This document shows, in pieces, positions 1-16,300 of a stretch of DNA of 64,000 nucleotides; the stretch's first letter is position 1; the number at the start of each line of letters is the position of its first letter. A program made the translations under genes and the position numbers. The stretch lies in assembly GCA_018093385.1 (NCBI GenBank), contig GCA_018093385.1_4808.1; one strand, written 5' to 3'. The stretch is from a phage. The notes beneath the pieces are model-generated. The model was given only the letters and a program-made list of their open reading frames with translations. It had not been told where the DNA came from and made no database searches.

Positions 1-83
1 AAAAAAACAATTAACTCCATTTTGAATTAATTTAAATTAATTTTTTTCTACATCCTCATACTTATACTAAACTTATATTTATA

Positions 84-140
84 CGTATCATCCGTAAGAT
101 ATAAGTAAAAACAAAGACTTGCGGCAATACGGATGATACG
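84..140. repeat. 13-bp perfect inverted repeat CGTATCATCCGTA (84-96) / TACGGATGATACG (128-140) with 31-bp spacer, preceded by an AT-rich tract (1-83); copy A of an iteron-like element
   Basis: Read directly; same arms and spacing recur at 16034-16089. Confidence 0.8.
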
Positions 141-315
141 TCACGATACGCTTCAACCAGCCAGCAGCGGCTAAGTCATTGATTTGCATAACAAGCGGCA
201 AAAGGGATGGATTTCTTTTATACGTATCAAACAGTACACCACGCACCACGGTCCGCAATTCTATTTGCACTATGATTTGTGTATGTTTATAGCCATAATG
301 AACATCAATCTGCAC

Positions 316-344
316 TTGAATATAATGTCCATCCATTGTATAAT
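316..344 (+). promoter_or_regulatory. sigma70-like promoter TTGAAT-N17-TATAAT upstream of TerS-like gene
   Basis: Consensus hexamers with 17-bp spacer; first 14-bp repeat sits near predicted +1. Confidence 0.5.
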
Positions 345-364
345 TCACACTATTAATTTGCACT

Positions 365-853
365 ATGGGATTTTGCACTATGAGTCAAGATTATGTAGCG
401 ATGCCTGAAGACTTTGAAGACCCGCGATTCGCAGAGCACAATCAGGCTTTATTCGATGAGTTCATTGACCTTGTTATTCAGGGCCATGACATGCGCGCAG
501 CTTTTGCACTAGTATTTGGAATGGAAGTTGCAACGGATAACTACACTGGCCAGCGAATCCTTTGCGCGCAACGCAATCCATACTACAAAATGCGCTTCAA
601 AAAGCGTATGGAAGAGATGCCACTCAAGGATTTGTGGAGCGTAAAAGGCGCAATTCACAATTTGGTTAAGCTTGTGCGTGATCCAGAAGTCGCGGCGTCA
701 GCCAAGCTTAATGCGATTCGTGAACTGAATATCATCTACGGCATCACGATGATTGACGAAAACGGTAACAGCAAGATGGGCCGTTCTATGGACGATTTCT
801 ACAAGGATTTTGGAGAGGCGGCCAAAGAAGGAGAGCAATTCTCCCGCCACTAG
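365..853 (+). CDS. Terminase small subunit-like DNA-binding protein (putative); start may be ATG 380
   Basis: HTH-like N-region and C-terminal AASAKLNAIRELNIIYGI resembling the conserved TerS segment; embedded in repeat array. Confidence 0.45.
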   Translation: MGFCTMSQDYVAMPEDFEDPRFAEHNQALFDEFIDLVIQGHDMRAAFALVFGMEVATDNYTGQRILCAQRNPYYKMRFKKRMEEMPLKDLWSVKGAIHNLVKLVRDPEVAASAKLNAIRELNIIYGITMIDENGNSKMGRSMDDFYKDFGEAAKEGEQFSRH

Positions 854-967
854 CCAATTTGCACTATGAAACGGCCCTAGAACACATTGCCTCCACTTCT
901 AGGGCCATCGGTAATACGACGGGGAAGGTTGCAACCGTAAACGCGTTAGAAAGTGTATTATTATAAG

Positions 968-1231
968 TCATCTTTTAGTCACCTTACGTAACAATTTACG
1001 ACCTTCAACCGTCCAATCGAACGATTCCACCAGCAGATTCGCACTATAACCTAAGACGATGCGCCCTTTCTCGTTATCGACCCGCCAACAAGTCTCGAAT
1101 AGCATTCGATTTGCACTATTAACTATTGCCGCAACTCGCGTAGGATAAGCGCAATTTGCACTATGGTCGTAAAGGGATAAGGTGCGACCACTTCCGATGG
1201 ACAACGTAGCGATGAGAATGAGCGTGTTCAT
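968..1231 (-). CDS. Hypothetical protein (weak; overlaps repeat array)
   Basis: 87-aa ORF, modest SD. Confidence 0.3.
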   Translation of the reverse strand: MNTLILIATLSIGSGRTLSLYDHSANCAYPTRVAAIVNSANRMLFETCWRVDNEKGRIVLGYSANLLVESFDWTVEGRKLLRKVTKR

Positions 1232-1281
1232 AAGCCACCAATTTGCACTATGAAAAGCGACCCCGAAGGGCCGCCATTCGA

Positions 1282-1908
1282 TTAGATAATCTGGAAGGTG
1301 TAGGACTTGTTGCCGAACTCGAAGTTCAAGCGTCCAGCTTCTTTAAGCTTCATGCGGAAGCGAATATGCTTGCTATCCGGTAAGCCCAGCGCGGCGAACG
1401 CTACGCGGACCGATTTGAACTCTCCTACACCCTCGACCATAACGCCGTTACGGGTGAGACGCTTTTGCGCCACTTCCTTATTATCCCAACTTTTTGCAAT
1501 ACCTTCGCTATTCGAACGGCGATGGGAAGGAGTGCCATTTTGCACTACGCAATTTGCACTATCGTTCAGGCCGCTTTTAACGAAGGCTTCATACTCTTCG
1601 TCGGTCATCGCATCGAGTTCTTCCTGAGTCGGCTCGGCCTTTTTAACGACCGCACGCGCCTTATGCGTTTTTACATCGCTGGACACTTCCTCGCGCGGCT
1701 TCGCGTCGGGAATGGGCGATTCGTTGGACGGCTCATCGAGCGCGTTTAAGGACTCGATTAACGCGATTACGCGAGTCTCGGCGGTCCGGCGGTCCGCAAA
1801 CTTCTTAATCGGTTTTGAGCCGGAATTTGCATTATAGAATGCAACGAGGTCGACGGTCTTAGTTGCGATAACGTCGCCGCTAGTCGAGAAACGATTTAAG
1901 CTAACCAT
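1282..1908 (-). CDS. Hypothetical protein
   Basis: 208-aa ORF with AGGAG SD 6 bp upstream of ATG. Confidence 0.55.
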   Translation of the reverse strand: MVSLNRFSTSGDVIATKTVDLVAFYNANSGSKPIKKFADRRTAETRVIALIESLNALDEPSNESPIPDAKPREEVSSDVKTHKARAVVKKAEPTQEELDAMTDEEYEAFVKSGLNDSANCVVQNGTPSHRRSNSEGIAKSWDNKEVAQKRLTRNGVMVEGVGEFKSVRVAFAALGLPDSKHIRFRMKLKEAGRLNFEFGNKSYTFQII

Positions 1909-1988
1909 AATAAACTCCTATTTGTTAGGGCGCTAGGCGCGAAAGAATTTTATTAAAGCGCCGCGCACGACGCTCTAAAAATCCTCTC

Positions 1989-2273
1989 TTACGCTTCGAC
2001 GAGGGAGAAGGTCTCAAATTCTTCTTCGCCCATAACGAGTAAGATATTACCGATTTCGACCGCTTCGAAGAAATATCCGTTAACGTTTACTTCGAAGGCT
2101 TCGCGGTCCGATTCCGGTAACGCCGCGTAAAGTTTAAAAGCCTCGGCGACCGTTACCCCACCAGCCTCGATAGTTTGGTCTACGTTCGCGGCGTAGACTT
2201 CGGATAAAATTTGTTTTACGCCGTAGTTCTCGACGATAGCGTTACGGATAGAAGAAACGTTAAGAATAGCCAT
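1989..2273 (-). CDS. Small hypothetical protein, paralog family member 1 of 3
   Basis: 94 aa, AGGAG SD; related to 2499-2801 and 2909-3199 products. Confidence 0.55.
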   Translation of the reverse strand: MAILNVSSIRNAIVENYGVKQILSEVYAANVDQTIEAGGVTVAEAFKLYAALPESDREAFEVNVNGYFFEAVEIGNILLVMGEEEFETFSLVEA

Positions 2274-2342
2274 TTTAAACTCCTAGTTCTCGACGGGCGT
2301 TAACGACCTATTCGTTAACTCATCCCGTCCCGATATGAGTAC

Positions 2343-2370
2343 ATTATAATATAGTGTAGAAAAAAGTAAA
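2343..2370 (-). promoter_or_regulatory. Promoter TTTACT-N16-TATAAT driving 1989-2273
   Basis: Shares core aaaagtgctttact...tacact...tataatgt with the promoter at 2813-2841. Confidence 0.5.
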
Positions 2371-2414
2371 GCACTTTTTCGATAAAAATGAGATAAATTA
2401 TTTTATCTTTTTTC

Positions 2415-2442
2415 TTTACTTCTTCATACACTCGCGTATACT
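2415..2442 (+). promoter_or_regulatory. Promoter TTTACT-N16-TATACT driving 2499-2801
   Basis: Same promoter family as 2343-2370 and 2813-2841. Confidence 0.5.
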
Positions 2443-2498
2443 TGTTTATATCGAGACGGGCGATGGCCCTTCCTTCTACTAGCATCGGGAGTTTTATT

Positions 2499-2801
2499 AT
2501 GACCACTTTAATCTCTTCTATCCTTACTTACGACGAAGACCGTTTAACCGTTCGCTCTCTTATCGCCGCCGTTAACGCGGAACTAGAATCCACCATTATT
2601 AAGGTCCGCGCGGTCGCTTTCGTCGGCCTTTCCTTCGACGATATTAAGTACGCCGAACGTAGCGCCATCCGCTTCGCGAAGACCGACGACGAAGCCGTTA
2701 CCCTTATCGAGACGGTTACGCCGCGCGGCGAAGCGTTAATTATCGTCGAGTATATCGACGTAGAAGGCGATAAGGCTTATAAATATTTTATTGCAGAATA
2801 A
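2499..2801 (+). CDS. Small hypothetical protein, paralog family member 2
   Basis: 100 aa from internal ATG with GGGAG SD; ORF track gives a longer 2442 start. Confidence 0.5.
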   Translation: MTTLISSILTYDEDRLTVRSLIAAVNAELESTIIKVRAVAFVGLSFDDIKYAERSAIRFAKTDDEAVTLIETVTPRGEALIIVEYIDVEGDKAYKYFIAE

Positions 2802-2812
2802 CGAAAAAGTGC

Positions 2813-2841
2813 TTTACTTCTTCGTACACTAAGACTATAAT
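2813..2841 (+). promoter_or_regulatory. Promoter TTTACT-N17-TATAAT driving 2909-3199
   Basis: Consensus hexamers; third member of repeated promoter family. Confidence 0.55.
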
Positions 2842-2908
2842 GTTTTATATCGAGAGGGGATGAGGTAGCGAATAGGTCGCTACCCGCCCGACCAACTAGG
2901 AGATTATT

Positions 2909-3199
2909 ATGATTACTTTAGCCGCTATCCGTTCCGCTCGCGTCGAGACTTCCGAAAACTCTAACGTATTTGGCGAAACCTTAGAGAGCGTTTATCTCTC
3001 TAACGTAGACGCAACTATCGAACCTATTTATGAGCCGATCAACTTCCTCGACCTTTACAAGTATCGCGACGAGGACATCGTATCATCCCGCGTAACGATT
3101 AACGGCTTCGTCTATACGATTACCGAAATCGGCGGCGAATATCTCGCTGTACCGCAACTCGGCGGCGAAGTAACTTATTTTAAAATTGTCTCCTTATAA
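2909..3199 (+). CDS. Small hypothetical protein, paralog family member 3
   Basis: 96 aa, AGGAG SD. Confidence 0.55.
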   Translation: MITLAAIRSARVETSENSNVFGETLESVYLSNVDATIEPIYEPINFLDLYKYRDEDIVSSRVTINGFVYTITEIGGEYLAVPQLGGEVTYFKIVSL

Positions 3200-3219
3200 T
3201 ATCCTTCCGTTACTAATAG

Positions 3220-3244
3220 GCCGCGCTTAGTCGCGGCTTTTCTT
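3220..3244 (+). terminator. Rho-independent terminator (GCCGCG-loop-CGCGGC followed by TTTTCTT)
   Basis: GC stem plus T-run directly after stop of 2909-3199. Confidence 0.6.
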
Positions 3245-3895
3245 CGTCCCTATCTCGATGCGCTTCTCCGCGAAAACTCCTTTATCCTTCCCTTCGTCGT
3301 CGCATAATCTTCGTCGAGATGCTCCTTAGTTCGCATAACAGGTATTACGTTAAATGGAGAACATCGCGTAAGTCCTTGTTTTATATAGACACCTATATCG
3401 GACCGTTAAGGCGGGTCGCGTAAGTCGTTGTTTTATAAAGGTGCAAAACTTTCCCTTCGTTCCGAACTAAAACGAGAAATATGCCGACCCTTCGCCCGAA
3501 AATAGTACGCATGCGAAATTACACGCATCTAGAATAATCCCCACCGATATTATACTACACGCAATCATTCGCTTTCGAATCATTATGCTTCATATTATTG
3601 TGTATCGAATCATTCGCTTTCGAATTGTAACGCTGGAAACTGTAACGGCGATTGATTATTGCGTTCGTGTGGTTTTTATGGCATGGGTCTTTTGGTGCGT
3701 TTTGGTACTTGATGAAATTTGCAGTACACTAATCAAAATACGACACATTTGGTCCACTAACTTTTCAAGAAAAAGTCCTGGACAGTACCGTACTATTTTG
3801 TGCCCACAGTAAATTTGCAGTACACTCCTGCGCGGCAGGCAAAAGAAAGGGCCGCCACAGCGACCCACGATTCACGGTTAAATCAGCAACACCCA

Positions 3896-4291
3896 CTATT
3901 CGCTCTTATGGGCATCACCAAAGCCATCCGCAATCTGGCTGATCAATGATTCAATGGACACAGTTTTACCAATTGATCGAGCGGTAATAGCAAGCATATT
4001 ATCAATCAAACCATGATTGGATGCATATGGTCCAGGTTTTGAATCATCTTCAGGACAACCAAAAAGCTGGTCGCGCAAACTTTCGAGAGAACGCTCAATA
4101 TTTTCCAGCTTCTCTTCTAAATCAGATTGGCGACGTAAAACCCATGTTAAGTCTCGGTTGCCGACTTCCAACCCATCAGAATCGCAAGCTGGAACGTCAA
4201 TTTTGATGCTGCCACCAAAGGCCATTCCGCTGCCTTTAGTATATGTGTTGTGAATAGAATCATTCTTATTTGACATATCATTACCTTTCAT
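3896..4291 (-). CDS. Hypothetical protein (start may be second ATG at 4276)
   Basis: 131-aa ORF. Confidence 0.45.
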   Translation of the reverse strand: MKGNDMSNKNDSIHNTYTKGSGMAFGGSIKIDVPACDSDGLEVGNRDLTWVLRRQSDLEEKLENIERSLESLRDQLFGCPEDDSKPGPYASNHGLIDNMLAITARSIGKTVSIESLISQIADGFGDAHKSE

Positions 4292-16020: not shown

Positions 16021-16300
16021 ATACGTATAATGACGTATCATCCGTATCAAGTAAGTTGTTGTTTTCAAAAGAATCTTACGGATGATACGGATGATACGCA
16101 TTGCCGCCGTACTATATAGGAATTCAAATAAATTAATTTAAAATTATATATCTAATTTAATTTTATTTTTTTATAAACTCTTATATATGAAAAGTATCCG
16201 TATCATCCGTATCATCCGTAGCACACCAGTGATAGCGCGGCTTATACACCGATACGGATAAAAATACGCCTCATTTTATCCGTATCATCCGTATCACACT
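16021..16300. repeat. Iteron-like element copy B: inverted repeat CGTATCATCCGTA (16034-16046) / TACGGATGATACG (16077-16089), AT-rich core (16100-16190), direct ATCCGTATC repeats (16195-16221, 16278-16295)
   Basis: Read directly; identical arms and spacing to 84-140. Confidence 0.8.

Follow-up and report, generated by a model that had tools for sequence, protein, structure and literature searches.

A conserved untranslated spacer holds the inner end of the direct terminal repeat of a Wifcevirus-type phage, a candidate site for forming the genome end

What is the role of a 650-bp interval between two convergent genes in which no gene is apparent? We addressed this question for positions 3245–3895 of a 64,000-nt phage sequence (GenBank assembly GCA_018093385.1, contig GCA_018093385.1_4808.1; the whole stretch is referred to as the window). 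A preliminary description of this DNA had listed three repeat pairs in the interval and suggested a regulatory hub or a non-coding RNA locus, and it had overlooked the main feature, which is the boundary of a direct terminal repeat (DTR) inside the region. The interval comprises the inner (right) 450 bp of the DTR and the first 200 bp of unique DNA, and we are highly confident in describing it as the inner end of the DTR within a conserved untranslated spacer. Beyond this description, we see about an even chance, judging from the sequence, that the region is a cis-acting site for forming the genome end, where the terminase or an accessory protein would bind beside the cut.

The 1.6 kb around the region is 89–97% identical to 29 phage records, nearly all of them Wifcevirus, including ECML-117, FEC19, WFH, WFC, Mansfield and Bas98–101. 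On this similarity, the window is a Wifcevirus-type E. coli myophage of the family Lindbergviridae. Wifcevirus comprises E. coli myophages of ~68 kb that are kin to the Pseudomonas PB1 group (PMC11990801).

The terminal repeat and its inner boundary

Terminal repeats of ~3.7 kb have been published for the phages WFH and WFC (PMC6563267), and the Mansfield record annotates a DTR at 1–3673 predicted by PhageTerm, from which read-start peaks and doubled coverage in virion-DNA sequencing are reported for that phage (PMC6753283). Both repeat copies are present in the records of WFH (3,701 bp), Ro157lw (3,533 bp) and SP13 (3,899 bp), in which we compared the two ends. In these three records and in Mansfield, the repeat starts at ...AACTCC(A)/ATTTT and ends at ...GGGCATGGGTCTTT/T(T)GGTGCG, where the slash marks the junction and the tail is also given as ...GGGTCTTT/T(T)GGTGCG. 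The homologous positions in the window are 18/19 for the start and 3692/3693 for the end; by homology with these relatives, the same sequence is present at both virion ends and stops here. The window itself starts 18 nt upstream of the start of the WFH and Mansfield records. The contig that encodes protein P0006, a 3,755-bp assembly with the small-terminase gene (terS) at 351–833 that ends ~440 nt past the last plus-strand gene, is almost exactly as long as the DTR, which looks as though the repeat assembled separately in the sample concerned. When the boundary sequences were compared, two marginal inverted matches (E 0.03 each) appeared, one to a module-A-like word at ~106–124 (module A is described below) and one to ACGGTCCGATAT at ~248–259, and these were not used.

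We aligned the region in 15 genomes, the window and 14 relatives, and found it to be more conserved than the neighbouring genes (Table 1); conservation in related phages was one of the checks that the preliminary description had proposed. Nucleotide diversity (pi) is lowest at 3620–3800, around the repeat end, where it is 0.012–0.03 over most of the segment with a minimum of 0.012–0.02 at 3620–3700. The alignment shows that the region behaves as non-coding DNA under purifying selection.

A periodic array and conserved boxes beside the repeat end

Outside the genus, three assembled contigs (L024, L025 and L026) were reached through distant homologues of the small terminase, which are 68%, 51% and 47% identical to the window protein, respectively, and Pantoea phage PA1 (Kylevirus) was reached by a 69-nt blastn match in a distant search against phages. 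The contigs keep the gene order with a 500–650-nt gap between the convergent genes, and PA1 has the same layout. A search of IMG/VR with the flanking 131-aa protein returned Wifcevirus only and no distant relatives, and a search of the same database with the pattern GCTTTCGAAT-N45-75-TTTGGTACT gave 11 unrelated chance matches and two Wifcevirus.

The block at the repeat end, module B (3533–3735), begins with a 15-bp-periodic array. The 18-nt repeat pair of the preliminary description (AATCATTCGCTTTCGAAT, exact at 3563–3580 and 3608–3625, 45 nt apart) represents the best-kept units of this array; the pair exists as claimed, although the coordinates given for it (3562 and 3603) were off by 1–6 nt. 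In shuffles, 0.14 matches are expected for this pair at ≤3 mismatches. The autocorrelation peaks at lags of 15, 30 and 45 nt and lies above all 2000 shuffles in the window, L026 and PA1. With L025 (P=0.0015), the periodicity is significant in four of five lineages; L024 has the same top lags and is non-significant on its own (P=0.12). The array is cleanest in L026, with nine consecutive AATCATT-N8 units at 3477–3611, and the number of units ranges from about nine in the window to about fifteen in PA1. In Bas100, exactly 45 nt are missing from the array, corresponding to three units in register.

Repeated elements thus adjoin the cut, as at a terminase site: the array ends 25 nt before the repeat end at 3692, and it is followed by GTT(C/A)GTG(T/C)G, a ~20-nt variable segment, the invariant TTGGTACT and GAAAT..(G)TACAC(T)..TCA. 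The Wifcevirus repeat end falls inside the variable segment, 9 nt before TTTGGTACT, and this second part of module B has a pi of 0.012–0.02 across the 15 genomes. The window, L024, L025, L026 and PA1 each have one copy of TTGGTACT without any change, and GTT.GTG.G is kept as well. The order of these elements is common to L024, L025, L026 and PA1, and the arrangement, with the array before and the box after the segment that holds the cut in Wifcevirus, persists in relatives whose small terminase is only 47–68% identical.

The small terminase is itself encoded in the DTR. The product of ORF 365–853 is homologous to the small terminase of Pseudomonas phage E217, which is a decamer (PDB 7UXE, E 6e-34; PMC9611059), and the gene lies 2.8 kb upstream, in the same repeat. 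Pbunavirus (PB1, E217 and JG024), the best-studied relatives in Lindbergviridae, has a homologous small terminase (41% identity) and a similar general genome plan, and is reported to be circularly permuted without a DTR, as was found for JG024 (PMC10913387). In Pa193 and in Salmonella phage PCSE1, minus-strand genes directly follow terS and there is no such spacer.

Several observations point to a site for forming the genome end. The DTR end is homologous in Mansfield, WFH, Ro157lw and SP13; the DNA is non-coding and is not a structured RNA (see below); diversity is lowest around the cut and below that of the flanking genes; the element order, with TTGGTACT invariant, is kept in the distant relatives; the 15-bp period is significant in most lineages and the Bas100 deletion equals three periods; the same repeat encodes the E217 small-terminase homologue; and the circularly permuted Pbunavirus lacks the spacer after terS. 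In the mechanism that we propose, the region would work at the DNA level, without a protein or RNA of its own. The packaging machinery, either a small terminase ring or an accessory DNA-binding protein, would bind to the array and to the boxes on its flanks, and the bound protein would direct the large terminase to a cut or nick a set distance away. This cut would set the right end of each packaged genome, and also one edge of the segment that is duplicated to give both ends a repeat. A more specific form of this mechanism, which we put forward as a rather speculative idea, is that the array is a docking track for the decameric small-terminase ring, with about nine to ten boxes, one per subunit, and the nuclease placed on the cut 25–35 bp away. 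The apparent match between the number of boxes and the ten-subunit ring is attractive.

Several observations weigh against a site for forming the genome end. The second repeat copy lies outside the window, and the boundary at 3692/3693 rests on homology. In the WFC record (L004/L005), the repeat end is 83 bp further right, between the two 16-mers described below; this may be genuine, or the end may have been determined less precisely in that record. A comparison of the left with the right repeat boundary gave no significant similarity (k-mer sharing at the shuffle level). The array zone at 3520–3620 is the most variable part of the region within the genus, and one phage, Bas100, lives without three of the array units. 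Serratia phage MyoSmar, a member of the same family with a 3,559-bp DTR, has its repeat end outside the convergent spacer, and none of the module motifs is present in it. The E217 small terminase has no appreciable DNA binding in vitro (PMC9611059). Furthermore, an array of TTTGCACTA around terS is an equally good candidate for the small-terminase site. MyoSmar terS lies at the same distance from the left end as in the window, and MyoSmar (L045) carries three CTCCTACAAAGCATGCTTATTTTTTT copies at 2468–2590 in its own ~900-nt G/T-rich spacer inside the DTR, a different repeat set at the equivalent place.

The TTTGCACTA array consists of ten copies of TTTGCACTA(T/C)G at 264–1561, all on the plus strand, inside and around terS and across minus-strand genes, where 1.7 would be expected in all 64 kb. 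There is almost no variation in these copies among the 15 genomes, and L024 and L025 have five copies each around terS. For TTTGCASTA, the window has 12 occurrences, every one of them on the plus strand and between 264 and 3822 (1.7 expected). From these patterns, we take the array to be clearly a functional element that differs from the 16-mers, and it is a candidate pac-like or polarity signal.

Alternative roles of the spacer

Could the region instead act through a product? Two records annotate short genes here, that of Mansfield (39 and 54 aa) and that of kaset, and three ORFs (3393–3512, minus; 3319–3423, plus; 3433–3528, minus) are open in most relatives. We translated every ORF of at least 30 aa (eight in total) in the window and the 14 relatives, and rejected all eight as genes owing to frameshifts, stops or lost starts and the lack of a third-position excess. 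A single-base deletion at 3767 (TTTTC-AAG) distinguishes the window from all 14 aligned relatives; it creates window-specific ORFs of 75 and 70 aa, and it is the reason why every relative has a frameshift in the ORFs that run across this position. ORFs that cross 3860–3886 run into a heptamer tract of variable copy number and are frameshifted in relatives as well, and the three remaining ORFs named above lose the start codon in at least one genome (Bas98 or WFH). Their variable sites are spread evenly over the codon positions (4/6/5, 5/2/5 and 6/4/6), as opposed to 31/22/52 and 48/46/75 in the flanking genes, and most deposited annotations, including those of BASEL, WFH/WFC and AV128, leave the region empty. 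Protein-coding genes are thus highly improbable, and the region has no conserved ORF, in agreement with the preliminary description. A small RNA or promoter hub is also very unlikely. In this explanation, tandem sigma-70-like promoters on the minus strand (3578–3549 and 3623–3594) would drive a short non-coding transcript that ends at the 3528–3507 hairpin, or a ~300-nt RNA through module A. The promoter-like sequences, which lie inside the 18-mer repeats, match at 10/12 and 9/12 positions, the DNA that follows the −10 element is similar to the beginning of the early-promoter cassettes of the DTR, and a terminator-like hairpin lies downstream. However, TATAAT is found only in the window and TH35 (GATAAT or AATAAT elsewhere), and nothing equivalent exists in the distant relatives. 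In most relatives, non-compensated changes in the 3' arm disrupt the hairpin, and the segment 3520–3539 is among the most variable of the region (pi 0.127). The covariance-model search suggested in the preliminary description gave no meaningful match: Rfam returned nothing at the gathering threshold for the whole window, and at E≤1 in 3150–3950 only one chance-level match overlapping a terminator. The folding energy shows no excess over dinucleotide shuffles (z −0.05 and +1.08 on the two strands), and for module A with the divergent relatives, RNAalifold computed −14 to −16 kcal/mol for ~190 nt, and on both strands the covariation term was a penalty. Neither a conserved structure with compensatory changes nor an RNA family was found, and the suggested non-coding RNA locus is left without backing from Rfam, folding energy, covariation or promoter conservation. 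The term regulatory hub can stand if it is taken loosely, to mean that cis-acting DNA sites are clustered here.

Two further explanations also treat the region as DNA, and we judge both of them to be unlikely. One is entry control as in T5, in which a host or phage protein would bind the repeat-rich untranslated end during ejection and pause or regulate entry, giving priority to expression of the early genes in the repeat, in analogy to the T5 injection stop signal. By architecture only, T5 "Repeat Region 3", the untranslated inner end of the left terminal repeat, is the closest analogue of the region. Both phages have a long direct terminal repeat carrying early genes and direct repeats on both sides of the boundary, and the annotated T5 record has plus-strand pre-early genes, terminators, a 1.6-kb untranslated repeat region with the repeat end (10139) and then convergent minus-strand genes, which is the plan found here. 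The untranslated repeat region of T5, a probable injection stop signal, is likewise more conserved than the neighbouring ORFs (Davison, bioRxiv 10.1101/866236), so that an untranslated repeat-rich inner end, convergent units and conservation above that of ORFs are common to both. The DTR of the window has three copies of a strong sigma-70 early-promoter cassette. In contrast, the T5 region is ~1.6 kb long and contains large inverted repeats, paired DnaA boxes and irregular 15-nt repeats, while the region here is ~0.65 kb with a strict 15-bp array, no large inverted repeat and no DnaA-box cluster (no exact TTWTNCACA and one match with 1 mismatch in 3245–3895). Two-step DNA entry is known for T5 and unreported for these myophages, the role of the T5 region itself is unproven, and BLAST found no homologues of the repeat-encoded T5 proteins, A1 and A2 included, in the window. 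GAATCATT and ATTTGCAC occur in T5 repeats C and D; a sequence link to the T5 repeats is nevertheless unproven, with 8- to 11-mer sharing no higher than in control regions (P 0.1–0.7). The other explanation, about equally unlikely, is a replication origin, in which the 15-bp iterons would bind a phage initiator and the adjoining T-rich DNA would unwind. Tandem direct iterons are indeed present, about nine to 15 of them, regularly spaced in a non-coding spacer and conserved across genera, and T tracts adjoin the array at 3672–3703. However, the neighbouring proteins include no recognisable initiator (the DTR proteins have no Pfam or PHROGs match), DnaA boxes and an AT-rich unwinding element are missing (GC 0.40–0.44, not markedly AT-rich), and the GC skew tracks gene orientation with no extremum here. 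An origin would also leave the exact coincidence with the genome end unexplained, and the array would occur twice per virion genome.

Neighbouring elements, related systems and implications

The three repeat pairs of the preliminary description are all real, and chance would produce none of them; for the 25-nt and 18-nt pairs this was gauged in shuffles. The 25-nt pair (TCGCGTAAGTCCTTGTTTTATATAG at 3364–3388 and TCGCGTAAGTCGTTGTTTTATAAAG at 3416–3440, described earlier as a 24-bp repeat) is identical at 23 of 25 positions with an offset of 52 nt, has 0.00 expected matches at ≤3 mismatches in shuffles of the 64 kb, and is low in variation within the genus. Both copies belong to module A, which is 70% identical to its counterpart in L024 and 66% identical to L026 2195–2349 (E 6e-17). 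In L026, module A is located upstream of the early-promoter cassette and 1.1 kb from module B, and it is therefore an independent element. It would be a separate module of the protein-binding type that only happens to adjoin module B in Wifcevirus.

The 16-nt pair (AAATTTGCAGTACACT, exact at both positions in Table 1) is, from its distribution, partly a conserved box (GAAAT..GTACAC) and partly a genus-specific duplication. The preliminary description had linked the 16-mers to a 14-bp array through a shared core. The shared AATTTGCA word is literally present, but the suggested connection is weak because the TTTGCA core is the varying part of the 16-mers: it reads TTTGCG or TTTGCC within the genus and TTGCCA or worse outside, while GTACAC is kept.

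Table 1. Features in and around the spacer, in window coordinates (pi, nucleotide diversity in the 15-genome alignment)
Feature	Position	Strand	Remarks
Direct terminal repeat, 3,674 bp	19–3692		placed by homology
Flanking gene	2909–3199	+	pi 0.130
Intrinsic terminator	3218–3239	+	closes plus-strand early genes of the DTR; 8-bp stem, 6 GC pairs, then T run
Spacer inside the repeat	3245–3692		pi 0.048
Module A, conserved non-coding block	3322–3478		holds both 25-nt repeats, core CGTAAGTCnTTG
Weak hairpin and T run	3507–3528	−	not conserved; probably non-functional
Module B part 1, 15-bp-periodic array	3533–3667		about nine (C)GAATCATT(C) boxes; Tandem Repeats Finder period 15; register layout
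Module B part 2	3663–3709		conserved GTTCGTGTGG box, ~20-nt variable segment with the DTR end, then TTTGGTACT
Spacer in unique DNA	3693–3848		pi 0.034
First AAATTTGCAGTACACT copy	3715–3730	+	23 nt outside the DTR; conserved part GAAAT...GTACAC(T)
Palindrome AGTACCGTACT	3784–3794		read from the sequence; within a block conserved in L024 too; pi 0.012
Second AAATTTGCAGTACACT copy	3811–3826	+	Wifcevirus only; absent from L024, L025, L026 and PA1
Intrinsic terminator	3849–3866	−	closes minus-strand tail-fibre operon; hairpin found by scan; annotated in WFH and WFC
Flanking gene	3896–4291	−	pi 0.113

The flanking gene ends are convergent, as described before. The plus-strand terminator is invariant in the 15 genomes (pi 0.000 over 3220–3239), is also found in L024, and is annotated in the Mansfield, WFH and WFC records. 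The palindrome AGTACCGTACT is kept in L024 and forms part of the loop of a terminator-like minus-strand hairpin there. The heptamer tract (ACCCACG)n at 3860–3886 lies between the minus-strand terminator and the stop codon of gene 3896–4291, and its copy number varies (one in the window, two in F13 and Bas99, about five in Mansfield); the authors of the Mansfield genome closed their assembly across this area by PCR. On the other side, ECML-117, F13, Ro157lw and SP13 have an extra 210-bp gene directly 3' of the 96-aa gene and before the spacer (L006 3611–3820, L007 3915–4124, L012 2825–3034 and L019 3191–3400), labelled "transcriptional regulator" in some records; it is missing from the window, in which the insertion point corresponds to 3199–3245. 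A scan of the window for tRNA genes found none.

Two more repeat families were observed in the window. The 13-mer TACGGATGATACG has eight exact copies, compared with ~1 expected at ≤2 mismatches: two in inverted orientation close to the left DTR end, on its inner side (84–96 and 128–140), and six near 16.1–16.3 kb (16034–16293). WFH has two more just outside the left boundary (L003 3515–3537). This 13-mer looks like an operator for a phage DNA-binding protein. The early-promoter/leader cassette CTTTACTTCTTCRTACACT...TATAAT...TATATCGAGAGGGG has three copies (2336–2384, minus; 2414–2460, plus; 2812–2859, plus) that drive three small DTR genes, and the same cassette precedes the plus-strand genes in L026 (2441–2475).

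Short repeats directly beside a precise terminase cut are familiar from lambda cos, where the cosB repeats lie beside the cosN cut, and from the SPP1/P22-type pac sites. These systems and the phage described here are alike in having repeats beside the cut and the small-terminase gene in the same genome segment. The known systems make cohesive ends or a headful series and have three or four sites at which binding was demonstrated, whereas here the end is a duplicated 3.7-kb segment, with about nine boxes at a fixed 15-bp period that are putative binding sites. The phiCbK-like phages have sharp repeat boundaries that are near-identical among relatives, with the right one intergenic (PMC3556154); no periodic array is described for them, and the left boundary of phiCbK lies inside terL, which sets them apart from this phage. 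With regard to T5, the copies of "direct repeat C" in its record (L041, 9468–9637) read TTAAATGAGAATCATTATC and similar, and match the E. coli Fur consensus GATAATGATAATCATTATC at ~15/19 positions. FhuA, the receptor of T5, is itself regulated by Fur.

That these phages have a DTR was known from publications; the literature searched contains no description of the periodic array, of the invariant box or of the fact that both are conserved across genera. How the ends of long exact terminal repeats are marked and cut is poorly understood, even for T5, and here the genome end falls within ~200 bp of compact, strongly conserved DNA whose architecture is simple and periodic. Since the site is compact, the small terminase is a homologue of one with a solved structure, and a member of the group, vB_Eco4M-7, was rebuilt from PCR fragments by in vitro assembly (PMC11074155), the question is directly testable. 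The true ends and their cis elements matter for annotation, as two records call ORFs here, and the true ends matter for engineering and rebooting these phages, which are considered against E. coli O157. If the docking of the small-terminase ring on the array holds true, a recognition-plus-cleavage site would for the first time be defined in a long-DTR myophage, and this site would be a cis element whose gain separates the DTR-packaging enterobacterial Lindbergviridae from the circularly permuted Pbunavirus.

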